Positions 32,400 through 59,636 of a stretch of DNA of 64,000 bases are shown here, piece by piece (within the stretch, counting starts at the first letter, position 1; each line of letters opens with the position of its first letter). The position numbers and the translations under genes were made by a program. The stretch comes from Nitrosopumilus sp. (lineage in GTDB: Archaea; Thermoproteota; Nitrososphaeria; Nitrososphaerales; Nitrosopumilaceae). The stretch covers positions 32,001 to 96,000 of the forward strand of contig OZ244650.1 of the NCBI GenBank assembly GCA_965218785.1. The letters are read 5' to 3'. The notes beneath the pieces were generated by a model. That model was not told the origin of the DNA, did not search any database, and saw nothing but the letters and a program-made list of their open reading frames with translations.

Positions 32400-32487
32400 C
32401 AAAATCATTCCTCTGGAATTTTTTCAAAACTATCATGTCACACACCAACTAGTTTGTAGGTCTTTTTTTTGGCTTTGAAATCTGCAT
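32400..32487 (-). pseudogene. hsdS 5' stub directly after hsdM
   Basis: MQISKPKK/TYKLVGV*HDSFEKIPEE* resembles the N-terminus of the 31001 HsdS. Confidence 0.5.
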
Positions 32488-32490
32488 TTT

Positions 32491-37604: not shown

Positions 37605-37633
37605 GTCTAAATACAAATGATTTATAATCAAAC

Positions 37634-38899
37634 CTAAACCCTGATTTTGCCCGACATTAATTTTGGGAGAAGTGAATCACGAATTTTTATCAAATTTTGT
37701 ATTGAAATATTATTTGATAATAATTTTTCAAAAATAAGATTCATAGTGCCATTCATTTTTTCTAATATTTTTGAAGATGGAATGGTAATTAGAGCTTCTG
37801 ATAAATGATGTCTTTGGATGTGACCCATAGTGGTTACTTTTCCTTCTGCAATTCTACAAAATCTAGGTAAATGAAATCGTATCCATTCATAGTAAAACCA
37901 CTTCTCATATTTTTCAGAAATTACTTTGAAAATATGTTGATTTAAAGCACCTTTACCATAATGCCACATCATTAATTCTAATGTACCTGACCATGAAAAT
38001 AAAATATCACCATTTTCAACAACATATTTTTTCTCTAAATCAACTCTGGCTTTTTCAATATTTGAAGAAAATCCATTTTTCATTTCTCGTATTTTAATGA
38101 CAGGTAAATAATTATTTGTCGTTGGTCTGAATTTTTGCAACGGTAACCCATTAATGAAAATTACAATTTTATCCAGTGCTTTTAATTCCCACCCTTTTGG
38201 AATCTCCTTTCCCAGTTCTTCATTATACTCCATTTCCCCATCCGACGACTTGTACGGTTTTCCATTCTCATCTGGGAACTCATAGTCAACAAACCATGAT
38301 TTGAAGATTGTTTGGGATATTTGTTCTAAGATCTGATTCATATTTCGATTTAATTCAATTTTAGAGTCTAGGTCTGAAAGAATTTTTGAAATTGTGGCCT
38401 GTTCATTTTTCTCAGGTATCTGAACAATAATTTGATCAAATGTATTTCTTGTAATAGTATTGAATACAGAACCATGTGTATTTGATTGTAAATCTTTTAT
38501 TTTAAACTTCAATAAATAATACAAAAAATCATTCTGTATTGCATTTTTTCCGTCTAGCCCATAACAAGATTGATTAAATGCCATATCTTTAGTGACTTGT
38601 CCAATTTCACCAACTGTGCCTCTAGCAGAAATAACCAACTGTCCTTTATGTAATAATTTTGTTGAACTTTCTTGTAAGCCTTTTTCTGTAATCGTTTTTG
38701 TGGTTTTGTAGATCTTTTTAATATCTCCAACAAAATCATTTATAGAAATCCAAGGTATACTACCATTCCAATAATTTGGATTTGATGTTTTAGGAGTTCC
38801 TCCGCCAATAATGTGTGTAATTTGAGAAAGAGGTTGAACTTTCCAATTTTTAGGAATCATTCCAAATTCTGTTTGTTTGAAATTTGTTTTTTGTTTCAT
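37634..38899 (-). CDS. hsdS: Type I R-M specificity subunit (intact)
   Basis: IPKNW, GGGTP, EQ..I..ILSDLDSKIELN, IFKSWFVD, IPKGW, RDSLLPKLMSGKIRV. Confidence 0.94.
   Translation of the reverse strand: MKQKTNFKQTEFGMIPKNWKVQPLSQITHIIGGGTPKTSNPNYWNGSIPWISINDFVGDIKKIYKTTKTITEKGLQESSTKLLHKGQLVISARGTVGEIGQVTKDMAFNQSCYGLDGKNAIQNDFLYYLLKFKIKDLQSNTHGSVFNTITRNTFDQIIVQIPEKNEQATISKILSDLDSKIELNRNMNQILEQISQTIFKSWFVDYEFPDENGKPYKSSDGEMEYNEELGKEIPKGWELKALDKIVIFINGLPLQKFRPTTNNYLPVIKIREMKNGFSSNIEKARVDLEKKYVVENGDILFSWSGTLELMMWHYGKGALNQHIFKVISEKYEKWFYYEWIRFHLPRFCRIAEGKVTTMGHIQRHHLSEALITIPSSKILEKMNGTMNLIFEKLLSNNISIQNLIKIRDSLLPKLMSGKIRV
38193..38302 (-). repeat. central inverted repeat, left copy (110 bp identical to 47380-47489)
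   Basis: Exact reverse-complement match in the hsdS central conserved region. Confidence 0.95.
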
Positions 38900-39348: not shown

Positions 39349-40674
39349 TTGAAGAAATTATTGAATACCACAAACTTTAAGAAAATATCTTTTAATGATT
39401 TCTGTAATCTGAATTCTATACGATATTGGCGTGAGCAATTGAACGATGCAAATATAAAAAACATAACAAATAAATCACAACTTGGTGGGACAAGAAATGT
39501 CTATACATATGGATTACTGGAGTTTCATAATTGGTTATTAGATAGAGAATTTCAATATGTTGCGGATATACAGATCAAAGAAAATATAATCCAGCAATGC
39601 AAAGTTGATGTACGTCTAGATGGTGTCGAACACTTACTAGATCTAAATAGAAAGAACATATCCAATAAAACAAGTTTTGCATGTCTAATAAAACAATATT
39701 TGGCAGAATTATCATCATACAGAAAACAATCAACAGTAAAAAACTCAATGTACTCAATAAGATCATTCTTCAGAGAAAACGAAGCAGACATTTCGTTTAG
39801 ATTTAAGCATAGGATCAAGAGAAATTATAAAAAATATGTAGAAAAATCATTATCTCTTGCAGATTTGCAAAAAATCCTTACAGTAAGAGATATTCAGTCA
39901 ATAGAAAGAGCCGTATTTCTGTGCAAGTTTCATAGAGGTCTAGATAACGCTACATTTGCTGATAGATTTAACTTTGAAGTGTGGGCATGTCTTCTAAAAC
40001 ACTTTGGTTCAGACATTCCAGAAAAATGGGATCTGAACAACATTCCAGTACCAATACGTCTTGTGAGAGTGAAGACGGGATTTACCCATACAGGATTTTT
40101 AGATCTGGATTCGATTGTAGCAATAATACAATATGTAAAGACTAGATACGACAAACCACAAATCAATAAGGCATTGTTTGTTGATACAAAAAATAGACCA
40201 ATTACAACAAACTGGATATCAAGAAGATTTCATAAATTAGTCATGAGAATTGATTTACAAGATAACATAAAACAACAATCGACTAAAGGGTATACCTCAC
40301 ATGAAATGAGAGATCTACTTAAATCTACTTTGATTGATTCTGGATGTAGAGTAGATGTAGCAGATCATGTTATAGGTCATGTTCCAAAAGATTCGTATGA
40401 GAAACAATCTTTATTATATCCTGAATCATTGATGAGAGAGTTTATGCGTGCATCACATCGTGTTAATATTATTACAAACAATTCTCAAAATAATCATGCT
40501 GTAAATTATTCTTTATTGCATGATGTAAATTGCCGATCAAAATATAACAATATTGTTGATATTGAAATTACACTTAAAAATATTCAAAAGGATATGATTG
40601 TACAGAGAGAGAAACTTTCACATATGGAAAGATTGTTTGATATTTCAACTAAATCAGAAGTACGTAATACATAA
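39349..40674 (+). CDS. tyrosine recombinase/integrase
   Basis: RVKTG, HEMR (HxxR), HVIGH, DSY. Box-I region reads HRGLD rather than G.R. Confidence 0.8.
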   Translation: MKKLLNTTNFKKISFNDFCNLNSIRYWREQLNDANIKNITNKSQLGGTRNVYTYGLLEFHNWLLDREFQYVADIQIKENIIQQCKVDVRLDGVEHLLDLNRKNISNKTSFACLIKQYLAELSSYRKQSTVKNSMYSIRSFFRENEADISFRFKHRIKRNYKKYVEKSLSLADLQKILTVRDIQSIERAVFLCKFHRGLDNATFADRFNFEVWACLLKHFGSDIPEKWDLNNIPVPIRLVRVKTGFTHTGFLDLDSIVAIIQYVKTRYDKPQINKALFVDTKNRPITTNWISRRFHKLVMRIDLQDNIKQQSTKGYTSHEMRDLLKSTLIDSGCRVDVADHVIGHVPKDSYEKQSLLYPESLMREFMRASHRVNIITNNSQNNHAVNYSLLHDVNCRSKYNNIVDIEITLKNIQKDMIVQREKLSHMERLFDISTKSEVRNT

Positions 40675-40831: not shown

Positions 40832-43800
40832 ATGAAAAAAATAATTTCTGAAGCAGACGTTGAAGAAAATGTTCTAGATATTCTAAAAGATTTAGGTTAT
40901 GAAATAATTCTAGGAAAAAATGAAGATTATCTTCCAGGCGGAAATAACTCATTAAGAGATAGCTATCAAGATATCATATTAGAAAACCGATTACGTAACG
41001 CTTTAAAACAAATTAATCCATCAGTATCTGATTTATCAATTGAACATGCAATAAAACAAGTTTTGCGAAACTCCAGTCAGAAGTTTATTGTAAACAATGA
41101 GAATTTTCACAAAATGCTCGTAGATGGAATAGACGTACCATCACAAAAGGATGTGGAAAGATACGAAAAAATATGGCTTTTTGAGTTTGATCCAAAAAAA
41201 ATCCATAATAATGATTTTGTTGCAACAAACCAGTTCACAGTAATAGAAAACAATATGGAAAGAAGACTCGACATAATACTCTTCATTAATGGTATTCCGT
41301 TACTAGTTTTTGAGCTAAAAAACTTGGCAGATGAAAAGGTAGACATTTGGACTGCATATAATCAATTCCAAACGTATATGGAACAGCTTCCTACTTTGTT
41401 CAAATTCAATGAAATACTTGTAATTAGCGATGGAATACAAGCAAGAGCGGGAACTATAACTTCAAACAAGGAACGATTCATGGAGTGGAAAACAGTTGAT
41501 GGTCATGTATCAAAGAAAAATTTGACTGCAATTGAAATTCTTTTGCGTGGATTATGTGACAGACAAAAACTCTTAGATATAATTAGAAATTTTATTATTT
41601 TTGAAAAGAACAAGAAGATAACAAAAAAACTTGCTGCATATCATCAATATCGAGCTGTAAACAAGGCAGTAGAATCCACAATCTGTGCTAGAAGAAAAAA
41701 TAAAAAAGCAGGTATAATTTGGCACACGCAAGGCTCCGGCAAATCATTAACCATGATATTTTACACAGGAAAGCTTGTCCGAGAGCTCGACAATCCAACT
41801 ATAGTTGTATTAACCGATAGAAATGATCTTGATGATCAACTGTTTGGTACTTTTGGCAGATGTCAGGATATTCTGAGACAAAAACCCAAACAAGCAGACA
41901 AGAGAACAGATCTTGAAAAACTAATCAATGTATCTTCAGGAGGTATTGTATTTACAACAATTCAGAAATTCTTTCCAGATAAAGATAGGAAGAAATATCC
42001 TGTATTGTCTGAACGAGATAATATTTTTGTGATTGTGGATGAAGCACATAGAAGTCAATATGGTTTTTCTGCCAAGATCGTAAATAAAAAAGACAAAGAA
42101 ACATTGATCACATATGGTTACGCAAAATATCTCAGAGATGCACTACCAAACGCATCGTTTATTGGTTTCACGGGAACACCAATCGAAAAATCTGACAAAT
42201 CAACTCCTGCAGTATTTGGTAAATATGTGGATTCATACGATATAGAACAAGCAGTAGAAGATGGTGCAACTGTGAGAATTTATTATGAAAGTAGACTTGC
42301 CAAACTGGATCTAAAACTAGAAGAAAAACCAAAAATTGATAAAGAATTTGAAGATGTGACAGAAGGAGGAGAAGAAGAGGAAAAAGAAAAATTAAAAAGC
42401 AAATGGGCAAGAACTGAAAAGATAGTCGGCTCTCCCAGACGAATAAAAAGAATAGCAAAAGATATTGTGGATCATTTTGAAGAACGAACCTCGATTTTCG
42501 AGGGAAAGGCAATGATAGTGTGCATGTCACGAAGAATCTGTGTTGATTTACATGACGAGATAACAAAACTTAGGCCTTTATGGCACCACAACGATGATGA
42601 TAAAGGAATAATCAAAGTAGTCATGACGGGTTCAGCTTCGGATCCAAAAGAATGGCAAGAACATATACGGAACAAAGCCAGAAGAAAGATAATTGGAGAT
42701 AATTTCAAAGAAGAAGAAGAAAAGCCACAGATCATCATTGTAAGAGACATGTTTCTTACTGGATTTGATGCTCCATCTTTACACACAATGTATCTGGACA
42801 AACCAATCAAGGGTCACTCTCTCATGCAAGCAATTGCAAGAGTTAACAGGATATATCCTGGAAAAGAAGGTGGTCTAGTAGTAGATTATATAGGAATAGG
42901 TGCGGATCTAAAAAAAGCATTAGTGGACTATACCAAAAGTGGTGGAAATGGTAAACCTGCTTTTGATCAAAACCAAGCAATATCACTTATGCTTGAAAAA
43001 TATGAAATTGTAAGGGATATGTTCTACGGTTTTGATTACAGAGAATTCTTTGATCTCAAACCCAATCAGAGAATCTCATTTATACCTGATGCTATGGAGC
43101 ATATTCTAAAGGAAAAAGGAAAGAAAGAGAGATTTGAAAAAGAAACTACAGCACTTTTGAAGGCATTTTCTCTTGCTGTGCCAAGTGACAAAGCAATGAA
43201 TATTAAAGACGAAGTAGGATTGTTTCAAGCAATTAAATCTGCAATCACCAAAACAATTGAATCCAAAAATATACTCAAAGGTGAGTTTGATGCAGGAATT
43301 AAACAAATTCTTTCAAAGGCAGTAGTATCTGACAGAATAGTAGATATATTTGAAGCGGCAGGATTACAAAAACCAGAACTCTCAATATTATCCGAAGAAT
43401 TTCTAAAAGAAGTCAAAGAAATGCCTCAAAAGAATCTTGCATTTGAAGCACTTAAAAAATTACTTAATGATGAAATTAGATTATTTGCAAAGAAAAATAT
43501 TGTTCAGGGAAAATCGTTTATGGATTTGTTAGATAAAGCTATTAAAAAATACACCAACAGAAGTGTAGATACAGCACAAATCATTGATGAACTTGTGTCA
43601 CTTGCAAGAAAAATAAGAGATGAGAAAAAAAGAGGAAAAGATCAAAATCTTTCAGATGATGAGATTGCGTTCTATGATGCACTTGAGGTTAATGACAGTG
43701 CAGTCAAAATTCTTGGTGATAAAGTGCTACAAAAAATTGCACTAGATCTGACTGATATGATACGAAATAGTGTAACAATAGATTGGACACAAAGAGAGAG

Positions 43801-43936
43801 TGTTCAGGCAGGAATTAGACTGAAGGTTAAAAAGATTCTTAGAAAATATGGATATCCCCCTGACAAGGAAAAAAAAGCTACCGAAACCGTACTCAAACAA
43901 GCTGGTGTAATTGCAAAGAGCTGGGCAGAATCTTAG
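40832..43936 (+). CDS. hsdR: Type I R-M restriction subunit
   Basis: [48 protein letters not shown]. Confidence 0.95.
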
Positions 43937-44288
43937 AAAATTCTATATTTTTTGTAATAAACTGAATTGATTAGATTATCCAGAAGAATTAGTTATAAAA
44001 TAGAACAATGTATGTCTTAACCTATAGCGAAAAGACAAAGTTCGTGAACTAAAAATCATCAAAAAACTAGAGAAATTAGCGGATTTTATCCAAGGTAAGT
44101 ATGAATAATAAAATTGGAATCCTGACAATAATTCATAAACTTATGCTTCTTGTTACATATGACTAATTCAATCATAAGATATAACATTTTAGGTACAAAA
44201 TATTACAAAATATTAATTCATACGAATAATGTGATAAAATGAACAATCTTAATTTATTTTTAGTATTATTATGAAACAAGTATATTGA

Positions 44289-45818
44289 ATGATAAATTCA
44301 TCTAATGTTGTGAATCTTGCATTCGAAGAAAAACTTTGGAAGACTGCAGATAAACTTCGAAGTAATATGGATGCTGCAGAATACAAACATGTTGTTTTAG
44401 GATTAATTTTTCTCAAATATATCTCGGATGTTTTCATCGAAATTTATGATGAATTAAGCAAAGATTCTAATTCAGATCCAGAAGATGTTGATGAATATAT
44501 TTCCAGAAGAATCTTTTGGGTTCCTAAAAATGCTAGATGGAATTATTTTGAAAGCAAAGCAAAAAACCCAGAAATTGGTGAAATTATTGATGATGCGATG
44601 GATTCTATAGAAAAAGAGAATATTTCTCTAACAGGCGTGCTTCCAAAAAGCTATGCGAAACCCAATTTGGATAAACAAAGATTAGGGGAATTAATTGATC
44701 TGATTGGTACAATTAGTTTAGGTGATAAAGAAAATCGAAGTAAAGATATTCTTGGACGAGTATATGAGTATTTTTTAGGACAATTTGCGGATGCCGAAGG
44801 AAAGAAAGGAGGTCAATTCTATACACCTCGTAGTATTGTTAAATTGTTGGTTGGGATGTTAGAACCATACAAAGGCAGAATTTTTGATCCATGTTGTGGT
44901 TCAGGAGGAATGTTTGTTCAAAGTGAGAAATTTATAGACGCTCATGGTGGAAAGATTAGAAACATCTCTGTATTTGGTCAAGAAAGTAATCAAACAACTT
45001 GGCGCTTATGTAAAATGAATATGGCGATTAGGGGAATTGATGCAAATATAAAATGGGGGGATTCTTTTAGAGATGATCAATTCAAAGATTTAAGAGCAGA
45101 TTTCATATTAGCTAATCCACCGTTTAATGATAGTGATTGGAGTGGAGAGTTATTACAAGATGATGTACGATGGAGCTTTGGACCACCTCCTAAAGGTAAT
45201 GCAAACTTTGCATGGATTCAAAATTTCATACATCATCTTTCCCCAACTGGAATTGCAGGATTTGTTTTAGCTAATGGCTCTATGACTTCTAACATATCTG
45301 GTGAAGGAGATATTCGTAAGAACATCGTGAAGGCAGATCTGATTGATTGCATGATTGCATTACCCTCTCAATTATTTTATAATACAATGATCCCTGCTTG
45401 TTTATGGTTTGTATCACACAATAAAAAAAAATATAAAATTAGAGATAGGCAAAAACAAACACTTTTCATTGATGCACGTAAAATGGGTGAATTAATTGAC
45501 AGAAGACATAGAGCATTAACAGATGACGACATAGAAAAAATTTCAGATACCTATCATATGTGGCAAGGAAAAATTGATAAAAAATATGAAGATGTATTAG
45601 GATTTTGTAAATCTGTTTCTTTAGAAGAGATAAGAAAACATGAATGGGTTTTATCACCGGGTAGATATGTAGGAGTGAAGACAGAAGAAGAAGATCCAAT
45701 AGAATTTGAAGAAAAAATGAAACAGTTAACAGCAAAGATTGCAAAACAAATGAATGAAGGAAAGATACTTGATGCAGAGATAAGAAAAAATTTAGCGAGT
45801 ATTGGATATGAATTCTGA
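44289..45818 (+). CDS. hsdM: Type I R-M methyltransferase (N6-adenine)
   Basis: [31 protein letters not shown]. Confidence 0.95.
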
Positions 45819-46791
45819 TAAAACATTAATCTTAATGGACACAAATAAAACTAGAAACATATTAGATGGTTCTCCTCGTTATGATGAATTTGATTTTGGA
45901 AGAGATTTCAAAGTATTAAAGTTGTTTATTGATAAAAATAATTTATCGGATAATATAATTTTAGCAATCACTGAAATGACATTAAAAGAATTACTTGTAC
46001 AAAAAAAGAAGACATATGAAGATGATAAAGAAAATCTAAGATCTGCATCAACTAGACTAAGAACTTTAAAAAATGTAGTAGTTATTCCTGATTTTACTCT
46101 ACCTGATAATTCTTTTGATTGTGTTAACTACCTTGATCCAATAATAAATGAATTCTTAAAAGAAAACAATATTACAATTATTAAAGTTGAAGATAGTAAA
46201 AAATCATCAACATTTGATGCATTAATTCAAAGGGCTATCGATAGAAAACCTCCTTTTAAGCCAGGAAAAAATAATAATTTTGGATCTGGGTTTAAAGATG
46301 CAATTATCTGGGAAACATTCAGTCAAAATGATATCAAAAAAAGTTGTGATAATATAATATTATTTACAAATGATAATGATTTTAATGGATGCGAGAAGGA
46401 AATCAACGATGTTAATTTTAAGATAATTAAATCAACAGGAGAATTAATTGATGAACTTGAATCAATATATGACACACAGATACGTATTAAAAAATATGAA
46501 AAAATATTAGAAAATCAATATTTTGAGAATAATCTTAAACATAATATTGAATTAGAGTTAGACCATACAATAGATGATATCAATATAGTTTCATTGCGTG
46601 ATCAAATTATAGACGATCCAATAGACTTGAAAGAAAAATTCCATTCTCTAAATAAAAATGAAGAATATTTTGAAAATATGATATGTTTAGTTAGCAATAT
46701 CCGGATTTTAGATGATGAGTACATAATATACAGTCTAATAGATCTTGGTCCTAATACAATTATAACAATTCAGGTAGAGAATAACCCATGA
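45802..46791 (+). CDS. PIN-domain protein (DUF4935-like) embedded between hsdM and hsdS
   Basis: [29 protein letters not shown]; overlaps both neighbours. Confidence 0.75.
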
Positions 46792-48069
46792 AACAAAGAT
46801 TCAAGCAGACAGAAATTGGATTAATTCTAGGGAATTAGAATTTTGAAGAATTAAATAAACACGCAAACATCATAATGGGTCAATCACCAAAATCTAAGTA
46901 CTATAATTCTGATGGAAAAGGAATTATATTTTTACAAGGTAATAGAACATTTGATAGAATACATCCAAGATATGATACATGGACAACCAGAGTAACAAAA
47001 CTAGCAAGAAAGATTCAGTGTTTGTAAGTGCACGAGCGCCTGTTGGTAAAGTAAATATTGCTTGTGATGATTTATGTATTGAACGAGGTTTAATGTCTAT
47101 TTCTGGAGACAATAATAAATTTATTTTTTATTTATTTAAAGCATACAAGAGTCACATTATCAGTAAAGAAACAGGAACTATATATGGTTTAGTAACCAAA
47201 GCAAGTATTTTAAACTTCAAATTTCTATTTCCAAGTTTGCATGAACAAGATCAAATTGTTAAAATCCTCTCCGATCTTGATTCTAAAATAGAACTCAATC
47301 ACAAAATAAACAAAACTCTAGAACAAATAGCCCAAACAATCTTCAAATCATGATTTCATGACTTGTTTAGCTAGTCCATAAATCATGGTTTGTTGACTAT
47401 GAGTTCCCAGATGAGAATGGAAAACCGTACAAGTCGTCGGATGGGGAAATGGAGTATAATGAAGAACTGGGAAAGGAGATTCCAAAAGGATGGAGAAATT
47501 GCAATCATAATGAACTAGGAGATTTTAAAAATGGTATAAATTTTTCAAAAAATGAAAATGGTGATTCATCTTTTTATATAATTAACGTACGGGATATAAT
47601 TAAAAATAATTTTGTGTTAGAATCTACGTGTGATGTGATAAACATAGATTTCAATAAAGCCAAAAAATATTTGTTAAAAGAAGGTGATATAATACTTGCT
47701 AGAAGTGCAAGTCCGGGGGAAGTTATTTTTATTTATGAATTTAATAATAAATTAATTTATTCTGGATTTAGTATACGATTTAGATCTTTTAATCCTATAC
47801 ATAGAATTTATTTATTTCAAAATTTTCAATTAATACAAAATATTATCAGATATAATCTTTCAGATGGCACAACTCTGAAAAATATTACTCAAGAAACGTT
47901 AAAACAAATCCAAATTCTTATTCCTGATGATGTGTTGCTTATTAGATATAACATACTTATTAAAAATATACATAAAAAGATAGTCTTATTATTGAAAGAA
48001 AACAGATCATTAATTTCTATTCGTGATTTCTTATTACCAAAATTAATATCGGGTAAAATCAGAGTTTAG
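46788..48069 (+). pseudogene. hsdS: second hsdS: TRD1 broken, TRD2 open
   Basis: [16 protein letters not shown]...MGQSP; frameshift near 47000; 35-bp insertion at 47353-47387; 47449-48069 open to LLPKLISGKIRV. Confidence 0.88.
47380..47489 (+). repeat. central inverted repeat, right copy
   Basis: 110 bp identical to the reverse complement of 38193-38302. Confidence 0.95.
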
Positions 48070-48098
48070 GTTTGATTATAAATCATTTACATTTAGAT

Positions 48099-48293
48099 TC
48101 ATTTTTATTTTGAACTCGTAATAATCAATTTTTTATCTTCAATTTTGATCGATGCTGTGAAGTTATCGTGTGTCAGCAAGAGTAGGTATTTTGGAGAATA
48201 GTTTCAACAAAGGGAATATTTTGATTCAAAATGCTTCTGGGAATCAGTACGGATAAAGATGGATTTTCAATCCAGAGAAGATCCATATTTCAT
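48099..48293 (+). repeat. outer inverted repeat, right copy
   Basis: 195 bp identical to the reverse complement of 37410-37604. Confidence 0.95.
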
Positions 48294-48335
48294 GTCTATA
48301 TCCACATAACTTGGGATAACCGAAAAAACAGAGTT

Positions 48336-48875
48336 TTAAATCCGCGAGGCCACATCAAAGAATGCAGAGTTTGTCTCCTCGATTGTTTTTGAACCTACAA
48401 TGATCCCTTTTCCTGATGTAAACAACAACGCAACACAGCTATCCTGAATCCGGTAAATCAATCCTGGAAACTGTTCTGGCTCGTAGATGCATCTGGGCAG
48501 TGTTCTTGCCAGAGTTTCTATTGAAAGTTTTCTACCCATATCAAACCTTGATACGATGTTTCTTACCTGTGGTGTGATCTTGACAGGCTTTACCAAATCA
48601 TAATTCCGCAGTATCCTGCATGCCTTGCGCAGTTCCCGTCTTGCCTGCTCTGGGCTTTTTGTACCCACGGAGATCAGCTTTCCGGTTCTAAAGACTGTCA
48701 CTCTACCTGTCATAACGTCATCTTTTACATATCCACATCGATACAGCTCCAGATTTGCACTGAGATGTTCATATTTGTTAAATGATTTTAGGTTGACTTC
48801 CTGCTTGAGGTCAGCAGTACACACTGTATTTTGAATCTTGATCTCTGATCGAAGCTTGATATCTGATTTTTTCAA
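48336..48875 (-). CDS. tbp: TATA-box binding protein paralogue (divergent)
   Basis: Two TBP repeats: IQNTVCTADL...VFRTGKLISVG.KS and RNIVS...YEPEQFPGLIYR...LFTSGK. Confidence 0.88.
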   Translation of the reverse strand: MKKSDIKLRSEIKIQNTVCTADLKQEVNLKSFNKYEHLSANLELYRCGYVKDDVMTGRVTVFRTGKLISVGTKSPEQARRELRKACRILRNYDLVKPVKITPQVRNIVSRFDMGRKLSIETLARTLPRCIYEPEQFPGLIYRIQDSCVALLFTSGKGIIVGSKTIEETNSAFFDVASRI

Positions 48876-48931
48876 CTCTAATTGTTTTTGTAATCCCCTG
48901 TTTTAAAAACACTCACAGTAAAACACATTTT

Positions 48932-51577
48932 TTATTTTCCAAAAACAGAAAAGAACTCTAATGCGCCTTTTTTTGAAAGTTTTTTATTTTTTGTAAGACA
49001 GTAGTTTGTGGTAAACGTACATCTTGGACATCCCTCCCACTCCCCATCTTCCTGATTGGAGTCTGCCGAACAATCACAGTCATTAACAAGCATATATGAC
49101 GCGGCCAGTATTTTTTCAAATTCATCAAAAATCATCCTGCTGTATCCGTTAAATCCGTTTGATGAGTTGTCATAAAGATAGATTACTCCATCTTCATAGT
49201 ATGCATCTATCTCGTTTGATTCTGACTTTGTAATGATCTTCGATGCGTTAATCAGCATGTGTATAACCGTATGAACTCGATAATCTGATGACATTTGACT
49301 TTTGGATCCAGAATCTATTTTTAAAACAAATTCTGATGGAATATCTATCCTGACTGCAGAATGCCTTGATCTCCAATTAAAGTTGCGCCATGCCGGAATG
49401 TCTGCACCATTAAACGTCTCAAACTTTTCTATTGATTCATTATAATTTCCCTTTAGATATCCAATAACTGTTTTATTTATTTCGACCATACCATAACGCA
49501 ACTGAATTTTTCTAGAGTTCATTATAACTTCCCTATATACTGCATCATCTGAAATTTCAGTAATTGATGTTATAATAATCGGAATCGTATTTTTTTGTAT
49601 TTCATCTGATTCCTTCAGGCGAGCTATTGCCCCGTTTCGAGATTTTGTTAACGATTCCACCTTGTAGGTTTGTTTGTTAAAATGATAAATTGCATCCTGG
49701 TGCAGCTGGTAATATCCCATGGGAATCCCTCTGGTCCCTATCTTTTTTGAATTATGATAAATTTCAATCTCACCTGACACCCCACGCAAATTGACACTAT
49801 TTGCAAAGGCAAAAAATTCAAGCTTGTCTGGCGTCATAACTGATCGTTTTTCAACCTCCACTGACTTTGTATGTTTTTCAGAAATGATAGGATTTTCTTT
49901 GTTAATTGAAATGATGTGCCTCTGTGCAAGATAATCCTTTATGTGCCGGGCAAAATAATGACATGCTGCATCATCTGGATCAAACACGCATACGGCATAT
50001 GATTTTTGTCCCATTCTTCCTGCACGCCCAATTCTTTGAACAAAAGAGTCATACTCGTTTTTAAACGCTGAAATTACCACATCCACACGACCTATGTCGA
50101 TTCCAAGCTCTAGTGTGGGCGTGCAGGATAACGCGTCTAATTCCCCTGCCTTCATCTGCAATTCGTAGAGTTTTCTATCCCTCTGATTAATGCCCCCTCT
50201 GTGAACCTGTATCCTGATTCTCTTGTTTGATTCTTCCAGATTTGATGCAAGAAACTCTGCGTTATTGTGGGAATTACTGAAAATCAACTGTGTAGAACCA
50301 TTTTCATAGCAAATTGACGCTAGCCGCTCCATGGTCGTCCTTTGTCCAAATTTTCTTGGCATGATAAAGATCATGTGCATGTCATGTTTTCTTCTGATCT
50401 TGCTTTTGATGTGTGAAAATGATTCTATAGGCAGATCAAACATATCGGAAAAAAACTCCCTGGAATTATCAAGTGTCGCAGAAGAGCCGACAAACTGGAC
50501 TTTACTCATGTACCTCTTCATTCGTTTTAACACGTGATACACGTTTGATCCATGAAAACTAGTGTAGGAATGGGCCTCATCCATTACAATTATTTTTGCA
50601 TTTTTGAACAGATGGCGCCATTTTTTATCCTGTAAAATCAGATGATAATTGATAAAATCAAAATTTGTTGCAATGATAACTGATTTTTTATATGAATCTG
50701 AAATGACTTTCTCCTTATATTCGGGATTCTGACCGCCGTGAATAGAGTAAACGCCTACAGTGCTGTTTAATCCGCATTTTTCAATTAGCTCTGATATTTT
50801 TGCTACCTGATCATCAATTAACGCATTTAATGGATATACAAACAGTGCAAAGACTCCGCGTTCTTTTACTTTGGAGATTTTCTGTAAAATCGGAATGGTA
50901 AATGCTTCGGTTTTACCAGAACCCGTGGGCGCCGATATTATCGAGTTATCCCCCTTTAGAATACGGCGAATCGTCTCTTCTTGGAATGGCAATAATCCTG
51001 AAAATCCGTATTTCTGTATTCCGCTTCGGATGTTTTCAGATAAAATATCCTTCAAGTTGTTAATGGGAATTTTCTCTGGTTCTGGAGCAGTCATGTTTTC
51101 ATAGTGAATTATGCCTAGTGTCTCTTCTTTGTGGCCCTGGATAATTTCATTAATTATTTTATCTTCATTTAGTAGTGATTCTGGAATTTTACTGATGTCA
51201 AAGAGGATGTCTGATGATATCGGTGTTGGTGATGTTGGTGTCTCTGGTTTTATGACTTTGGGCTTTTGTTTTTTATATTTTTTAATTTCATCTGGATAAT
51301 ATGGTTCGGCTGATTCTATGGGGCCATCACATTGATGCGGTCTGTCTGTCCGGGAATCCATTGGAATGAATTTGCCGCTGTCGGACTTGAATTCCTCATC
51401 CCAGTATATCTCGGTCCCGCATCCTTTATTGCATTGTTTTGTCTTTGAGTAATTAATTCCATATGCCGGTCTTTTTTTAACGACTAATTCAGGATTACAT
51501 CTTGGACAAATCCATGATGCTCCCACATCTTTTGAATTCTGCAAAAGTCTAGTATCACAATCTGAACAGAATTTCAT
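48932..51577 (-). CDS. DEAD/DEAH helicase of the Hrq1/SftH/MrfA (DUF1998) type with N-terminal Zn ribbons
   Basis: Likely start MKFCSDC (51577); PTGSGKT, YPLNAL..DQ, DEAH, SAT, LELGIDIG, QRIGRAGR; C-terminal CDC...GCPRC...C. Confidence 0.85.
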   Translation of the reverse strand: MKFCSDCDTRLLQNSKDVGASWICPRCNPELVVKKRPAYGINYSKTKQCNKGCGTEIYWDEEFKSDSGKFIPMDSRTDRPHQCDGPIESAEPYYPDEIKKYKKQKPKVIKPETPTSPTPISSDILFDISKIPESLLNEDKIINEIIQGHKEETLGIIHYENMTAPEPEKIPINNLKDILSENIRSGIQKYGFSGLLPFQEETIRRILKGDNSIISAPTGSGKTEAFTIPILQKISKVKERGVFALFVYPLNALIDDQVAKISELIEKCGLNSTVGVYSIHGGQNPEYKEKVISDSYKKSVIIATNFDFINYHLILQDKKWRHLFKNAKIIVMDEAHSYTSFHGSNVYHVLKRMKRYMSKVQFVGSSATLDNSREFFSDMFDLPIESFSHIKSKIRRKHDMHMIFIMPRKFGQRTTMERLASICYENGSTQLIFSNSHNNAEFLASNLEESNKRIRIQVHRGGINQRDRKLYELQMKAGELDALSCTPTLELGIDIGRVDVVISAFKNEYDSFVQRIGRAGRMGQKSYAVCVFDPDDAACHYFARHIKDYLAQRHIISINKENPIISEKHTKSVEVEKRSVMTPDKLEFFAFANSVNLRGVSGEIEIYHNSKKIGTRGIPMGYYQLHQDAIYHFNKQTYKVESLTKSRNGAIARLKESDEIQKNTIPIIITSITEISDDAVYREVIMNSRKIQLRYGMVEINKTVIGYLKGNYNESIEKFETFNGADIPAWRNFNWRSRHSAVRIDIPSEFVLKIDSGSKSQMSSDYRVHTVIHMLINASKIITKSESNEIDAYYEDGVIYLYDNSSNGFNGYSRMIFDEFEKILAASYMLVNDCDCSADSNQEDGEWEGCPRCTFTTNYCLTKNKKLSKKGALEFFSVFGK

Positions 51578-51881
51578 TAATAATTTTTGTAAATATACCA
51601 TTAATGAATAGTGCTTTGTTGAACAAGACATCCTGTATTCTCAATAGATCACTATTCCACTAACAAGAACTTCTCCCGTCAGTATGTATTCAAATAAACA
51701 TTGGATTTAGATCTGATTCTTTCATCAGTAATAGTACATGAAATGTAATAGACATCTCAAATTCAATTGAATTGATCATTACAAAAACTGATCACTGATT
51801 TTCTAGTAAGAGTGTCATTTTAATAAATTCACATAAAAAAATTAGCGAATGATTTAAGGAGCCGACTTTATTAAAAAAATT

Positions 51882-54782
51882 ATGGATTATGAAGGATTAA
51901 AGCTGTTTATTCAGTATAGTGCTCATCCTCAAACAAATTACGAATTTGTAATAATAAGAATTCTTTTAAATGTAGAACATGCAACACGTAATTCAATAGT
52001 TAAAGACCTGAATGACGCAAATCCTTCATCTGGTGAAGATTTTCATGAATCAAGCATATTTGATCTTCTTGTTGAAAGAGGAATAATAAAAGAAGATGAT
52101 GGAATTTATACTTTAATTGATTATGATAAATTTTCTGTAGAACAAAAGAAAATGCTTGTAAAATTATGTAATGAAAGAATTCAAGCCATTGACTCTAAAA
52201 TCGATCCTCAGCCAAATTATTTTAAAATTGCACCTGGAGAACAAGCTCGGGACTGGCAAAGACAAAAGAAACAAAGAAGCATTGGAATTGGTTGGAATGA
52301 TCTAGGTGATTTAAGTAGATTAGAATTTGAACAAGTAAATGAATTAATTAAAAAAAGCAAACATGCTAGATCAATTTTTACACAATTCAAAAATTTTCTC
52401 AGTATCAAAAAAGGAGACATCATTATTGCAAACAAAGGAATGAGTAAAATAGTTGGTATAGGTAAAGTGATTGGAGAATATCAATACAAACAAGACGAAG
52501 AACATGCACATACATTTCCTGTAGAATGGATTTACACAAAAGAAAAATACATTCCAACACAAACAAACTGGTTTTTTACAGTTTCCAAAATTACTCCTGA
52601 ATCATTCAATAATATAATTTCAGAAAAATCATCTTTATCAGAAGAATTTGAAGATCTGGTAAAAAAATTCGATAAAAATCCAAAAGACTTTGAAATTAAT
52701 GATTGGACATGGACAAAAAAAGAAGTTAGAGAAAAATATCATGAACATTTTGTCACAAAATTCCCTGCAGAAAAAATTGATAATCTTACAATTGAACAAT
52801 ATGTTTTAGGAATTTTAGATGATGAAAAAAAGCCAAATCAAGAATCATTTTCATATTATTTGGAAAGAGAGGCACCCACAACAGGCAACATTATGGGCAG
52901 TGTATCAAAAAAATTTGGAATTTATTATGATAGAAAAAATCAAAAAGATTTCATCTATTCAAAGTCATATTCCAATGAGATTGATGCGTTTAATGCAGTA
53001 AAGCATGACATTACAGTGATTTTATCTGCTGGAAAAAAATACATAGATGACAAAAATTCTAAAAAATTATCTAACATTGTTGATATACAAGATCGAAATA
53101 TTCATAGACATATTAGATCAAAGTTACTATCTACATATTATCCAGATTCATTTTTATCAATACATAGCAGAAAGAAAATTGATTTACTATTAGATTATTT
53201 TAATATTCCAAAAGTGGAACTCAAAGAAAAACTAACTATGAAACAACTCAAATTACTTGACATTAAAGATAGACATCCAATAATGAAAAATTGGGATGTT
53301 TGGACATATTCTTACTTTTTGTTTGCAGTAATTTTACCAAAAATGGAATCAAAACATCCTATAAGGCGTGATGAGCAAATTTCAAAAAAACAATTACCAA
53401 TACCAAGTTCAGAAAATCTGGCAGAACTCAAAAAACAATTAGCAAAAGTATTACTGATAAGGGATGACAAGTTGGAGGAAATAATTTCTGCATTATTAAC
53501 AGGAAAAGGTGTATTATTAACAGGTGCGGTGGGTACCGGAAAAACTCATCTTGCAAAAATATTGCCTGAAATTGCTTGGAAAGACCATGGTGGTGGATAT
53601 TATTCCAAGATAGTAACGGCAACATCGGATTGGACTACAACAGACGTAATTGGAGGAATTCATCCTAAAGTGGATGCGGGAAAGATAACCTATGAAATTC
53701 AAAAAGGATGTGTTGCAAATACGGTTTCATTAAATTGGAAGGAAGGAACAAACAAATCAAAAGAAAGAGAATCATTTGAAGGATTAAACGCAGAAAAAAA
53801 CAAGCATAAATTTAGAGGCGTTTGGCTAGTCATTGATGAATTTAATCGTGCAAACATAGACAAAGCATTTGGACAATTATTCACGGCTTTGGAATACAAA
53901 ATTATGCAAATCCCAACAGTAGATCCAAATGAATCAGAAGAAGAATTAATCATTCCAGAAGATTATAGGATTATAGGTACACTGAATACCGCAGATAAGC
54001 ATTATTTGCATTCATTATCGGATGCATTAAAACGAAGATTTTCAATTATTGAATTATCAATACCTGATTATTCTCAAAAAGATGAGGAATTATATTTCGT
54101 AATCAAAAAAGCAATGAAAGACAATGTTAGTAAAGTAAATCTGATTTTATCTGATATAGAAGGAAAATTTGCTAGAGGTAAAGGTGATCCGGATGCAGAA
54201 AATATTGTTGATACATTATACACATTAATGACATTTATCAGAGAAATAAAACCATTAGGAACCGCATTATTAATTTCCATGTTGAGATTTATGATTGTAA
54301 ATCACTCATTAGATTTGGTAACAAATAAAAAATGGAATACAAGTTTAGATAGTGCACTAGTATCATTTATTATTCCACAGATCGAAGATTTACCTTATTG
54401 GACATTAAAAGTAATTAGAGCCGCCTTTTGCAATGATTTAGAAAAATTCTTTGAAAATGATCCTGAGATAAAAGTTGAAGGTCCTGAAAAATATAAAAAA
54501 GATTTTCACAAATCCGTCGAATTTATTAAAAAAATAAAAACTAAAAAACGAAATAAAATTTTATTTAGATTTCTAGATAACAAACTTGGAACAAATAAAG
54601 AAAATGATGAAGATGGTAATGAAAAACCTGACAAAGATATAGAATATCTGAAAATATGGAATGCAGAAAATATAGGAAGCAAGCCAGCTCTTCCAAAATT
54701 TAGCAATGCGATTGATCAGATAATTTCTGAAAATGGATTTGATGAACAAACAGAGGAAGAATCTGAAAAAAATGTCGGATAA
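51882..54782 (+). CDS. mcrB: McrB-like AAA+ GTPase with several N-terminal DNA-reader domains
   Basis: GAVGTGKT, IDEFNRA, NTAD (NxxD), ALKRRF; EVE/PUA-like IGIGW...KKGD..IA...IVGIG.V. Confidence 0.85.
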   Translation: MDYEGLKLFIQYSAHPQTNYEFVIIRILLNVEHATRNSIVKDLNDANPSSGEDFHESSIFDLLVERGIIKEDDGIYTLIDYDKFSVEQKKMLVKLCNERIQAIDSKIDPQPNYFKIAPGEQARDWQRQKKQRSIGIGWNDLGDLSRLEFEQVNELIKKSKHARSIFTQFKNFLSIKKGDIIIANKGMSKIVGIGKVIGEYQYKQDEEHAHTFPVEWIYTKEKYIPTQTNWFFTVSKITPESFNNIISEKSSLSEEFEDLVKKFDKNPKDFEINDWTWTKKEVREKYHEHFVTKFPAEKIDNLTIEQYVLGILDDEKKPNQESFSYYLEREAPTTGNIMGSVSKKFGIYYDRKNQKDFIYSKSYSNEIDAFNAVKHDITVILSAGKKYIDDKNSKKLSNIVDIQDRNIHRHIRSKLLSTYYPDSFLSIHSRKKIDLLLDYFNIPKVELKEKLTMKQLKLLDIKDRHPIMKNWDVWTYSYFLFAVILPKMESKHPIRRDEQISKKQLPIPSSENLAELKKQLAKVLLIRDDKLEEIISALLTGKGVLLTGAVGTGKTHLAKILPEIAWKDHGGGYYSKIVTATSDWTTTDVIGGIHPKVDAGKITYEIQKGCVANTVSLNWKEGTNKSKERESFEGLNAEKNKHKFRGVWLVIDEFNRANIDKAFGQLFTALEYKIMQIPTVDPNESEEELIIPEDYRIIGTLNTADKHYLHSLSDALKRRFSIIELSIPDYSQKDEELYFVIKKAMKDNVSKVNLILSDIEGKFARGKGDPDAENIVDTLYTLMTFIREIKPLGTALLISMLRFMIVNHSLDLVTNKKWNTSLDSALVSFIIPQIEDLPYWTLKVIRAAFCNDLEKFFENDPEIKVEGPEKYKKDFHKSVEFIKKIKTKKRNKILFRFLDNKLGTNKENDEDGNEKPDKDIEYLKIWNAENIGSKPALPKFSNAIDQIISENGFDEQTEEESEKNVG

Positions 54783-56247
54783 ACAATTTCGTGCCGAAGT
54801 AGTAAAAATCATTGAAAATGTAAAAGATAACAAAAATGAATTTGGGCAATTAGCAAGTTCGGCTCATTATTTTAAATCACAATATCCTGAAATTTCAAAG
54901 CAATTCAAAGATGAAATATCCAAATTAGATGATCATAAAACATGGAGTGGTTTTTTTCGAGAGATACGTTTCTGGAATGAATTAGGCGTTCCACAGATGT
55001 ACCGCCGTACAATGCTACTTTCAATGAGATTAGCAAGCAAGACAGATGAATTTTTTAAAATTGATAGTGATATCGGATCATATACTCTACCCACAAAATT
55101 AGGTAAATTTCTAAAAATGGCACTTGTTGCAAAAGATTTCGTTTATGATATTTATCCAAGAATTGAAAATAACATAAATTTCAAATCAGAGTCCATTATT
55201 GAAACATCTGATACAATTAGAGGCACGATTAATTGGACTAGAACAATTACAAATTCAGTAAAACGAGGAGATAAACATCCAACACAATTTGCATGTATTA
55301 TTAATCAAAATGATTTTGAAACTCCAGAAAATATTTTAACAATATTATGTTTATTAAAGATTCAAACAGATTTAGAGACATTACTTTTTGAAACAAGTGA
55401 ATTAGATTATGCCAGAAATGAATTGAGGATGATTTTTGAATTAAAAACAAGAATTGATTTTCTCGTATCACATTCTCACATGAAATTTTTGATTTCAAAA
55501 TTTGATAAATATAAATTTCTAAATTTGGATAGTAAAATTGTCAAATTCTATGAAAACGAAACAAAGAATGAAATTCAAAAAGGCACCATCAAACAAAAAT
55601 CATACTTGGATCTTACAGAATGGTTAAAAAAATATCGAGGATACAATATGGAAGGAATAATACAAAAATATTTAGAATTTCCAATAAAACACGAACGTTC
55701 ACTTGACACAATGTATGAATTGTGGATATTTTTTGAAATGTCAAACTATTTCAAAGAACAAAAAAATGTTAAAGTTTTATCATCTTTAAAAAATACAAAG
55801 AACAATTTTGCCGGATTTGAATTAAAGATAGAAAATAAAAAAGTAAATCTAAGATATCAATATGAAGAAGTTGGTTGGACAGGAATAAAATCAAATCCAG
55901 ATATTGTGCTTGAAATAGATGGAAAAATTCCAATTATTATGGATCCTAAAAATTATACACGAGAACAAAGCGTGGCAATAAACAAAATGTTGGCATATTT
56001 GTTGAATTTAGGCAAGTCAGGTGCAACTATAGGAATTTTATTTTTTCCATATGGTATTGAAAGAACCAAAATTAATGAGACAGATTACAAATCTGTAGTT
56101 AATACCACAGATTCAGTATTTGGGAGAACATTGTCATTATCAACCATTGTGCTTAATCCAACAAAGCCACAGGAAGTTAAGAAAAACATGGGTGTTGTTT
56201 TTGGTTATGTTTATGAAACAATTTTAAGTGAAATCAAATCTAAATGA
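54772..56247 (+). CDS. mcrC: McrC-like PD-(D/E)XK nuclease
   Basis: IRGTINW, F.TPEN, YELW, PDIV...MDPKNY, KMLAYL; overlaps the mcrB stop. Confidence 0.75.
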   Translation: MSDKQFRAEVVKIIENVKDNKNEFGQLASSAHYFKSQYPEISKQFKDEISKLDDHKTWSGFFREIRFWNELGVPQMYRRTMLLSMRLASKTDEFFKIDSDIGSYTLPTKLGKFLKMALVAKDFVYDIYPRIENNINFKSESIIETSDTIRGTINWTRTITNSVKRGDKHPTQFACIINQNDFETPENILTILCLLKIQTDLETLLFETSELDYARNELRMIFELKTRIDFLVSHSHMKFLISKFDKYKFLNLDSKIVKFYENETKNEIQKGTIKQKSYLDLTEWLKKYRGYNMEGIIQKYLEFPIKHERSLDTMYELWIFFEMSNYFKEQKNVKVLSSLKNTKNNFAGFELKIENKKVNLRYQYEEVGWTGIKSNPDIVLEIDGKIPIIMDPKNYTREQSVAINKMLAYLLNLGKSGATIGILFFPYGIERTKINETDYKSVVNTTDSVFGRTLSLSTIVLNPTKPQEVKKNMGVVFGYVYETILSEIKSK

Positions 56248-59500: not shown

Positions 59501-59636
59501 CAAAGAAGATCTTGATCAGAAAAAATTAGATGATGTTGTATTCAAAGTACTGGGATTTACTTCAAATGAAAAAGAACAGATTGAGGTAAAATTGGAAGAA
59601 ATACGAAATAATCGGTTAAATTCAAAAAAGAATTAG
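56550..59636 (+). CDS. Type IIG (Eco57I-like) fused restriction-modification enzyme
   Basis: IEAK nuclease motif, LNRLIFIFF, FNG.LF, GVYYTP, LDPACGSGAFL, IGNPPY, C-terminal TRD. Confidence 0.9.
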   Translation: MSLLQGLENVNGTSWRNGNLVSELFNKKTVSKQSQKVEITSAQVDNAQEWLDMLNQGVLVETEHYYDFRDIVLQGILGYDKKRIKEHNDNMEYQVTDDGGNKVLVIEAKGSDKDLYKKQHYGRNSQETPILQTWTYMGLGRKYGICTNYNKFILLTIVGGYERQHVFDFKSIKKDNEKINEEKLKEFIHVFSMKTLIDGQSSEKLREESKSEQRDFTEKFYNLYHDTRVRMINAFENNDNVDRGKAIYYTQIMLNRLIFIFFVADRGVLRDQSLFEDTLNKIINSGEFSEQSHRIHDRLKELFRQFDKGSRIDGISKFNGSLFSSPFPDMISFPDIVEEPPKQSSSKLPKQGEKVKNIMQKEPKLNPIITNLLTMDQYDFKTEVDVDILGHIFEQSLSDIEILKLENLENTRKNEGVYYTPDYITNYICKNTIVPYLSKSKSNSIQKLLGEYDGNLDELKEKIRKLRILDPACGSGAFLIQAVDMLMIISRAIHNTIGDNSNEQQQLDQNWEDDAIRQIITENIYGVDLNRESADITKLSLFLKMVTNEHPLIDLSTNIKTGNSVITDISKPNAFDWNKNFPSIMESGGFDIIIGNPPYVRYQSLESYIDYIQLPKSNTLVLEKDFKIHSYTDLVGYFFYHSLNILKQNGKLGFISSDGWMHSNYGKSLQKVILDNCVIEKMMHTVFNVFEDADIKTITILLEKKKSSTNTNVQLINVNEEDEITSGDFKNIIKPQSEFEQGNWNLYFAEDEFIPKIDMIKIHPDIGHVKIGKLTGCDSFFVLSKEIIDKYQIPDTYLKPILSKNIDSAYVVPKQATEYFFNVDESKGKLLQSEDGKKALKYIEMGEKTTITPKMGSDRTPKLIPELYNLKNKKTWYSLSLGIAPPIFIARFGDKQMKLVENSGDFHSTRRNIGITPKKTKYTYALLSYLRSSFFALYLEKHGHIHGGGVLEIRTTDYRNALVPDLDKISKINVEKMKKAWERYKEDLDQKKLDDVVFKVLGFTSNEKEQIEVKLEEIRNNRLNSKKN

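Follow-up and report, generated by a model that had tools for sequence, protein, structure and literature searches.

Within a 64,000-nt stretch of the genome of a Nitrosopumilus sp. (contig OZ244650.1, positions 32,001 to 96,000; hereafter the window, which is C1:32001-96000 of genome G000, 1.99 Mb in size), two neighbouring genes on the reverse strand encode a superfamily 2 (SF2) helicase of the YprA/MrfA family (48932..51577, 881 aa counted from M19) and a paralogue of the TATA-binding protein (TBP), here called TBP* (48336..48875, 179 aa from a TTG start, stop codon included). The spacer that separates them, from the stop codon of the helicase to the start of TBP*, is 56 nt long (48876..48931) and holds a TATA-like box, and both genes belong to a ~60-kb stretch of low GC content, 29-36% against 40.6% for the whole genome. 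The open reading frames (ORFs) of the window were called and translated, and the proteins annotated by Pfam, NCBIfam and PADLOC. This reproduced the ORFs and coordinates of a first-pass annotation of this DNA, which had pointed out a helicase followed on the same strand by a TBP after 56 nt, and the Pfam domains agree with it. That annotation had taken the pair for a two-gene module linking transcription initiation to defence or repair. Gene identities, distributions and neighbourhoods were observed directly, and we propose, with a probability of about 0.5, that these are two functionally separate genes joined by rearrangement of the island: a repair helicase that acts on its own, and a TBP that would be a transcription factor dedicated to restriction-modification (R-M) cassettes.

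The two repeats of TBP* are readily matched by the Pfam TBP family (1.6e-35), and the protein falls below all NCBIfam TBP cut-offs (best 117.7 vs 181 bits, PRK00394 models). Its best solved relative is the TBP of P. woesei (9e-31), to which both repeats align. An AlphaFold2 model with a predicted local distance difference test score (pLDDT) of 93.9 matches archaeal and eukaryotic TBPs in Foldseek (template-modelling score 0.82-0.87, E ~1e-15), confirming at the level of a predicted structure that TBP* keeps the complete TBP saddle of two alpha/beta lobes. In known TBPs, four Phe residues kink the DNA by intercalation, two central Asn residues contact the minor groove, and the C-terminal stirrup with its E-P-E motif contacts TFB/TFIIB. 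TBP* has invariant N16, N106, F62, F136 and F152, and an invariant Tyr45 takes the first Phe position, so that three of the four Phe are kept. The second repeat had been called canonical and indeed is: its stirrup, YEPEQFPGLIYR, follows the same pattern as canonical TBPs and chain A of 1ais, with YEPEQFPG kept across the clade. The first repeat had been read as degenerate, and is instead remodelled. Its PEQFPG is replaced by LY(GG)RCGYVK with a two-residue insertion, and Y45, C47, G48, Y49 and K51 are invariant across the clade (Y-R-C-G-Y-x-K); judged by this conservation pattern, the first repeat is a conserved new surface. The lack of an acidic tail, also remarked upon at first, is true of TBP*, but it is not distinctive, as canonical Nitrosopumilus TBPs likewise do without a long acidic tail. 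Finally, the ratio of nonsynonymous to synonymous substitution rates (dN/dS) of TBP* is 0.08-0.11.

TBP* is the third TBP of its genome, next to two canonical copies. Relatives were found in 10 of the 121 genomes of the genus, and in 19 of 401 Nitrosopumilaceae genomes, covering 7 of 27 genera, while public data add up to more than 120 protein clusters at 63% identity or higher; a protein atlas returned generic TBP clusters only. In a maximum-likelihood tree of 50 rows, from which four fragmentary or aberrant ones were left out (L077_469, L061_111, L065_1354, L094_1817), the 26 TBP* relatives form one clade (support 100/99, branch length 1.36) that splits into two subclades and stands apart from the canonical Nitrosopumilus TBPs. 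The comparison with housekeeping copies that the first-pass annotation had suggested thus sets TBP* down as a separate accessory clade, and not as a vertically inherited housekeeping copy. Metagenomes contribute a third subgroup that carries GRVAY in place of RCGY. Extra archaeal TBPs are as such well known, among them TbpA-F of Halobacterium and TBP1-3 of Methanosarcina. Like these, TBP* is a full-length, two-repeat copy besides the housekeeping ones; unlike them, its clade is an accessory one on a long branch, in which the first stirrup is rewritten and which is physically tied to R-M cassettes. As a side observation, truncated or frameshifted TBP* copies lie in islands that also hold intact ones (L083 and L084, both in G131; L072 8309-8467; L073 3038-3196; L077 469-894; L092), which implies repeated duplication and decay.

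The neighbourhoods of TBP* were surveyed by clustering the ORFs within 10 kb on either side of 15 loci, and then across 26 full-length genome loci, with L082 counted as canonical and L083, L084 and L092 excluded as fragments or pseudogenes. Around the first 15 loci, the recurrent neighbours are hsdS, hsdM, hsdR, and tyrosine recombinases of ~305 and ~441 aa. Type I genes lie within 10 kb of TBP* at 15 of the 26 genome loci. Other R-M genes are found near L100 and L105 (a ~670-aa N6-methyltransferase with an S subunit, a Type IIB-like layout), L070 of genome G124 (a Type IIG methyltransferase and a PLD-SNF2 helicase) and L076 (an N6_N4 methyltransferase), and R-M genes thus accompany TBP* at 19/26 loci in all. 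As a background to these counts, 41 HsdM_N matches were found in 29 of the 121 genus genomes, and 8 of the 13 TBP* copies there are within 10 kb of one, where a random point would be so in ~0.4% of cases (simple arithmetic from rounded genome sizes). A metagenome replicate gave hsd genes at 15 of 28 TBP* loci versus none of 52 canonical-TBP loci (Fisher 5.6e-9), a comparison in which all 80 loci were classed by hidden Markov model score alone and many of the TBP* contigs fall short of the controls in length. Outside the Nitrosopumilaceae (401 genomes of the phylum searched), two more TBP* loci came to light: in G776 (L191), of another family, hsdR, hsdS, hsdM and TBP* follow each other as overlapping ORFs, and in G605 (L190), the neighbours of TBP* are a PLD-SNF2 helicase and a Type IIG methyltransferase, a pair also seen in G124.

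The Type I partners of TBP* span at least three dissimilar families, and their arrangement with it takes several forms. TBP* is co-directional and tightly spaced or overlapping at L072, L073, L074, L081, L100, L104, L128 and L191; it is placed directly upstream of hsdR at L072, L073, L074, L104 and L111; and it is convergent with hsdM or hsdS in the window and at L079, L099, L107, L112, L117, L123 and L127. The suggestion that TBP* is an accessory paralogue tied to defence islands holds up in these data, and can be narrowed to R-M cassettes in particular. Of the roles that the first-pass annotation had offered for it, an alternative TBP for island promoters has become the leading reading, with a decoy or sensor retained beside it. 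In our literature search, which the TOTE paper and all supplements (these may list TBP genes) lay outside of, no report was found that links an archaeal TBP to R-M genes, and as such we have not found the tie between this TBP clade and R-M cassettes described in print. Two side observations belong to these loci. In L070 (G124, 9441-17903) and L190 (G605, 9824-17257), TBP* precedes or faces an Eco57I/MmeI-type methyltransferase of ~1,000-1,300 aa and a PLD-SNF2 helicase of ~1,100 aa, which are DISARM/ARMADA-like parts, and in G124 a helicase stub precedes TBP*. Moreover, a 3,086-nt contig filed in a Hyphomicrobiaceae bin (L089) carries hsdS, a TBP* at 75% identity and a ~300-aa recombinase, and is probably mis-binned thaumarchaeal DNA.

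A search of gene neighbourhoods for co-occurrence of helicase and TBP, named beforehand as the test that could refute a two-gene module, showed that their co-occurrence is not conserved. Orthologues of the helicase (46-74% identity) are present in 25 of 36 genomes of the same genus, and 24 genomes of other families hold only paralogues at 36% identity or less. At none of the 21 informative orthologue loci, being those of the 25 with the 3' end present and at least 650 nt of downstream sequence, does a TBP follow the helicase (search at E 1e-3). Conversely, the helicase is absent beside TBP* at all 25 other genome loci, the window being the only one of the 26 to have it, and from all 80 metagenome TBP loci. 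Where a genome has both genes without their being adjacent (n=6), the distance between the two is 46 kb or more, or each is on a contig of its own. Elsewhere, the helicase is flanked in a few syntenic groups by DUF371, HD-domain, anthranilate synthase (trpE) and PD-(D/E)XK genes, none of which is a conserved neighbour over the 25 orthologue loci; a PD-(D/E)XK gene is near in just 5 to 6 of them. These usual flank genes are found in G000 at 0.91-1.08 Mb, and the c12-c7-c1 site there is without a helicase, which indicates that the island copy was relocated or re-acquired. At that site (G000:C1:1078132-1079889), c12, c7 and c1/DUF371, which flank the helicase in 5 to 6 genomes, stand side by side, and the DUF371 match comes in two pieces.

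The one further trace of the junction comes from G124, where DNA homologous at 90% to window positions 48325-49030 takes in TBP*, the spacer and the final ~96 nt of the helicase. Here, TBP* (94% identity) has as its neighbour a frameshifted stub that corresponds to the final ~32 codons of the helicase, and the helicase orthologue of this genome is found 1.1 Mb away. The TBP* of G124 is under purifying selection (dN/dS 0.078) while the helicase has decayed to this stub. The shared junction must therefore be ancestral to both islands, with selection having kept only the TBP. Furthermore, the TATA-like box of the spacer, TTTTTAAAA at 48901-48909, lies ~30 nt before the TTG start, and boxes like it are found equally far from the start in G124 and in G106, where there is no upstream helicase. 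From these boxes it can be inferred that TBP* has its own predicted promoter in the spacer. The two-gene module of the first-pass annotation thus finds its intact form in this genome only, among all those searched, and we conclude that the helicase and TBP* are neighbours by accident of island shuffling.

So what kind of helicase is it? Its long ORF (48932-51631) encodes 899 aa, in which the MKFCSDC start is residue 19, at position 51577, where the orthologues begin. Pfam finds DEAD (residues 215-389, 9e-33), Helicase_C (436-541, 2e-16) and MZB/DUF1998 (791-872, 1e-9), and the four-Cys signature of the MZB domain, CDC...CPRC, is readable. The best solved relative is YprA/MrfA of B. subtilis (6znp, 2e-44), collinear without a break over residues 180-594, and the top NCBIfam match is the YprA-like TIGR03817 (5.8e-54), under its cut-off. 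PADLOC matches to DruE, DrmA, DpdJ and BrxH are limited to portions of the helicase core. Bell et al. (2025 preprint, PMC12458937) divide the YprA family into a repair branch, consisting of 'YprA only' proteins without conserved context and of MrfAB, and a defence branch, and describe the latter's lineage of ARMADA/BRIGADE/TALON/Druantia as marked by a BrxA-like insert that follows RecA1, by zinc-barrel and MarR inserts within RecA2, and by a C-terminal nuclease. Because the gap from DEAD to Helicase_C is ~45 residues, and the protein ends 27 residues after MZB, the window helicase lacks the inserts and nuclease of the ARMADA/TALON/Druantia lineage. Its predicted build is the simple 'YprA-only', repair-type one of RecA1, RecA2 and an OB/MZB canopy, free of inserted domains and lacking a C-terminal nuclease, an assignment made by comparing architecture with the published description. 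With MrfA/YprA it shares DEAD, Helicase_C and MZB/DUF1998 in the same order, and with the 'YprA-only' branch, as described in that preprint, the want of a conserved operon partner. Unlike MrfA/YprA, it is archaeal, carries a double zinc module seen in Nitrosopumilus only, and scores under the NCBIfam cut-offs; unlike in the MrfAB branch, an MrfB-type exonuclease partner is not conserved at the 25 orthologue loci. It also differs from DISARM and Druantia, since there is neither a separate DrmB (DUF1998) gene nor a DruE of more than 1,400 aa with its partners, but an 899-aa protein without adjacent partner genes.

The N-terminus of the helicase does carry the two Cys/His modules that had been noticed at first, and both are conserved over 24 orthologues. 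A zinc ribbon of the form CxxC...CPxC (51497..51568, C22, C25, C42 and C45 of the long ORF) is followed by a second module, C-x3-C...H-x-C (51329..51433, C67, C71, H99 and C101), with an invariant GKFIP. Numbered from M19, there is no variation at C4, C7, C27, C49, C53, H81 and C83, and hardly any at C24. This region of ~110 residues matches 169 protein clusters, of which all the named ones are Nitrosopumilus. The specific likeness to TFS/Rpb9 that had been read into it found no significant support: a Pfam scan of residues 19-146 (E <=10) returned insignificant zinc-ribbon rows only, with Zn_ribbon_RPB9 at E 0.49, and a poor AlphaFold2 model of the first 195 residues (pLDDT 67.5, predicted template-modelling score 0.27) gave nothing at E <=0.001 in Foldseek against the PDB, its best row being an Rpb9 chain at E 0.4. 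Given such a low-grade model and no significant match in either search, no named fold can be assigned to the helicase N-terminus. Most likely, the helicase would act alone as a DNA-repair-type translocase, and its zinc modules may help to find or hold the nucleic-acid substrate.

As for TBP*, the reading that we prefer begins with a rearrangement of the ~60-kb low-GC defence island, which would have brought it together with the helicase. TBP* would then bind TATA-like DNA in the R-M cassette, and recruit TFB and RNA polymerase of the host to the cassette promoters. Four TFB genes are present in G000, none of them in the island; with the binding features of TBP* kept, the simplest model is therefore a cassette TBP that would work with the host's TFB and RNA polymerase. 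The new stirrup could supply a cassette-specific contact to DNA or to a partner, and TBP* might in this way switch or time the expression of R-M genes, hsdR in particular, as an archaeal functional counterpart of the bacterial controller (C) proteins. These are helix-turn-helix proteins, mostly of bacterial Type II systems, which bind a C-box upstream of their own gene and the R gene, and delay restriction until methylation is established. Like them, TBP* is a small, putative DNA-binding protein by an R-M operon, and in five loci directly upstream of the restriction gene; unlike them, it has a TBP fold and is found mainly with Type I systems. The placement before hsdR recalls controller proteins by way of analogy and not as evidence, and the likeness is functional and hypothetical, not one of membership. 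DNA binding, TFB recruitment and a regulatory role are thus what we infer for TBP* from its sequence. Taken more widely, and quite tentatively, a TBP clade may have been recruited into R-M cassettes across the Nitrososphaerota as a dedicated component, be it an R-M controller with an orthogonal TBP-promoter pair, or, more boldly, a protein-level guard whose DNA-shaped saddle would trap viral DNA-mimic anti-restriction proteins.

We must however take into account several points that weigh against the reading that we prefer. Seven of the 26 genome loci have no R-M gene in the sequence available, among them contig ends (L078, L101, L098) and core-gene contexts (L102, L106). Only 8 of the 41 HsdM_N loci of the genus carry TBP*, which makes it optional for Type I systems. 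The loci are moreover related and not phylogenetically independent, and as such the R-M statistics overstate the case. The orientation of TBP* with respect to the hsd genes varies, being convergent, divergent or co-directional, and no distinctive motif was seen by eye, without use of a motif program, upstream of TBP* or the hsd genes beyond ordinary TATA-like boxes. Layouts with overlapping ORFs would also fit a stoichiometric protein partner instead of a regulator. The residue roles assumed for TBP*, those of the Phe pairs and the E-P-E stirrup, are carried over from known TBPs, and the role of the protein as a whole is read from genes and their neighbourhoods. Furthermore, the helicase-TBP* junction is common to the islands of two species, meaning that the pair has travelled together at least once.

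This last point, together with the 56-nt spacing on one strand and the position of the G000 helicase in an island, off the syntenic site of other genomes, is what speaks for the helicase and TBP* as a functional two-gene module of defence or repair. A precedent exists in TALON, in which an ARMADA-like YprA helicase is described together with TBP, TPR-CSD and a NERD nuclease, and a TBP is likewise part of TOTE systems (PMC12458937); what the window has in common with TALON and TOTE is a defence island where the gene of a YprA-family helicase adjoins that of a TBP-fold protein. However, TALON as described is bacterial, mostly of Chloroflexota, and its helicase bears BrxA-like, MarR and zinc-barrel inserts and ends in a dead RNase H domain, alongside NERD and TPR-CSD genes (PMC12458937). 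The window helicase has none of these inserts, nor the C-terminal RNase H-like domain, and NERD and TPR-CSD are absent among the Pfam-annotated neighbours at 22-64 kb. With the adjacency recurring at none of the 21 helicase, 25 genome and 80 metagenome loci, a frameshifted helicase stub against a TBP* under purifying selection in G124, and a TATA-like box of its own for TBP*, the module is largely refuted by the neighbourhood survey, and we regard it as very improbable. A faint echo of the TPR and TBP pairing of TOTE is seen in L077 (G015, 1146-4702), where a 349-aa TPR protein lies between the recombinase and TBP*. The best placed of the alternatives, and still an unlikely one, would have TBP* bend DNA as an architectural aid to the tyrosine recombinases by which hsdS is inverted or cassettes are integrated, in the manner of IHF or Fis. 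A tyrosine recombinase is within 10 kb at 17/26 genome loci, and in the subclade nearest to the TBP* of the window, it follows TBP* on the same strand after 93-268 nt (L071, L087, L088, L089, L098). L077, L087 and L098 consist of TBP* and a recombinase with no R-M gene in view, and TBP* lies at the edge of a repeat-bounded hsdS segment in the window and in L073, L079, L081 and L103. Yet no recombinase is in view at the R-M-linked loci L099, L100, L105 and L191 or at 15 metagenome loci, a purely architectural protein would not need the TFB-binding stirrup that is kept here, and no inversion was seen directly, as contigs end at the repeats.

Next in plausibility, and improbable in our view, is that TBP* acts at the protein level as an R-M accessory, either as a guard or decoy for viral DNA-mimic anti-restriction proteins, or as a nucleic-acid sensor as proposed for the TBP of TOTE. 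ORFs that overlap or nearly overlap with hsd genes (L191, L081, L072) suggest co-translation, Type IIB-like and Type IIG systems are linked to TBP* too, with the N6-adenine methyltransferase module as sole shared part, and the invariant new stirrup could be a protein-binding surface. TBP-fold proteins are also described in bacterial conflict systems (PMC12458937). Against this, TBP* retains the hallmarks of DNA and TFB binding, even with Tyr45 for the first Phe, and it shows no fusion to, or fixed order with, any one R-M subunit. In addition, we know of no anti-restriction protein of viruses of these archaea, which also counts against a guard. More doubtful still is a reading of TBP* as a spare basal factor, carried by mobile AT-rich islands as general cargo and found near R-M genes through their shared status as cargo. 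This would fit its patchy distribution, the several copies and decayed fragments in G078, G127 and G131, and the transposases and integrases nearby, and thaumarchaeal integrated elements are described as carrying TFB and Type I R-M genes (PMC6563490), though at least in its main text that study makes no mention of TBP. Mere cargo, however, is hard to reconcile with a TBP* that directly abuts on or overlaps hsd genes at 12 or more of the 26 genome loci, involving three unrelated Type I families and three TBP* subgroups, when hsd genes occur at 0 of 52 canonical-TBP control loci.

To our knowledge, nothing is known on how archaeal R-M cassettes control their own expression after horizontal transfer or a switch of specificity, and a TBP paralogue that travels with such cassettes is a concrete and testable candidate for this control. 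If true, a basal transcription factor fold would be at work inside an archaeal immune system, possibly as an R-M controller, the first of its kind in archaea. The idea of TBP folds in conflict, which so far stands on rare bacterial operons (TOTE, TALON), would also be extended to genuine archaeal TBPs, in hosts that are ammonia-oxidising archaea abundant in the oceans. At the same time, this locus is a caution that a tidy, same-strand gene pair in a defence island can be an accident of island shuffling.

The Type I locus next to TBP* is of a build that deserves description in its own right. A complete hsdS of 421 aa (37634..38899, reverse strand; Methylase_S 1e-39 in two stretches) lies inverted with respect to two partial hsdS ORFs (46979-47353 and 47449-48069, forward strand; Methylase_S 3.4e-18 and 1.7e-10), which are convergent with TBP*. 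Between them, all on the forward strand, are a 441-aa tyrosine recombinase labelled 'Yrec_c7' (39349..40674, Phage_integrase 2.2e-7) within the putative invertible segment, hsdR (40832-43936; HSDR_N, SWI2_SNF2 and T1RH-like_C), hsdM (44289-45818; HsdM_N and N6_Mtase) and a PIN_12-domain gene (45802..46791, 1.6e-16) between hsdM and the partial hsdS copies. An inverted repeat of 275 nt at 96% identity has its left arm at 37410-37684 and its right arm at 48019-48293, ending 43 nt before the TBP* stop, and a second inverted pair of 114 nt at 99% is found at 38189-38302 and 47380-47493. These repeats join the complete hsdS (37634-38899) to the partial copies (46979-48069). In 5 of 8 other loci examined, hsdS inverted repeats of 57-195 nt are likewise present, and homologues of the 441-aa recombinase at 58-60% identity are found in two TBP* loci (L075, L079). 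The assembled contigs of three DNA runs break at the repeats, with no strand-changing joint listed. Known here from assembled sequence, the locus is laid out like an invertible hsdS system.

Phase-variable Type I systems with invertible hsdS are known from the pneumococcal ivr locus and from the hsd loci of Mycoplasma pulmonis. As in these, oppositely oriented full and partial hsdS share inverted repeats, here of 114-275 nt, and the window locus has a tyrosine recombinase; unlike them, its repeats bracket a segment of ~10 kb with recombinase, hsdR, hsdM and PIN gene, the host is archaeal, a TBP paralogue flanks the locus, and our knowledge of it comes from sequence. That the repeats enclose all of these genes, and not just hsdS segments, gives the locus a shufflon-like build. 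The PIN gene occupies the place that in some Type I loci of bacteria is taken by guard toxins. With respect to the cassette as a whole, run X3, which stems from another study, has a contig in which 37229 is joined to 48322 and the 11-kb Type I cassette left out (depth 5.2; the shorter side has 57 letters), and a loose end is found at 37229 in run X1. Among strains, the entire Type I cassette may thus be present or absent, with TBP* just outside of it.

On the other side of the pair, and divergent from the helicase, three genes follow on the forward strand: a McrB-like AAA_5 protein of 966 aa (51882-54782), a 504-aa ORF without family match (54733-56247), and a Type IIG/PglX-like methyltransferase (56550-59636) recognized by Pfam, PADLOC and NCBIfam. 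The position of the pair between a Type I locus and McrBC, as the first-pass annotation had it, stands for hsdR, hsdM and hsdS and for the McrB-like protein, which Pfam identifies; since the 504-aa partner matched no family, half of McrBC is accounted for. The N-terminal half of the McrB-like protein matches the PADLOC candidate families PD-T4-1 (2.3e-30) and PDC-S02. The borders of the island were not found, as the window has no tRNA and the sole tRNA of the first 160 kb lies at 141.6 kb. A second Type I system is located at 31001-36819, with its hsdR split into two overlapping ORFs, 35035-36819 (HSDR_N, ResIII) and 33981-35042 (EcoEI_R_C), which may be frameshifted. Lastly, an element of ~130 nt before hsdS and hsdM (39049-39146 and 44020-44150) was considered as a cassette promoter and rejected, having nine copies genome-wide. 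The copies are 75-100% identical, and the depth of the corresponding contig in run X3 is very high (6381 vs ~7), which suggests a small dispersed repeat or an element resembling miniature inverted-repeat transposable elements (MITE-like).

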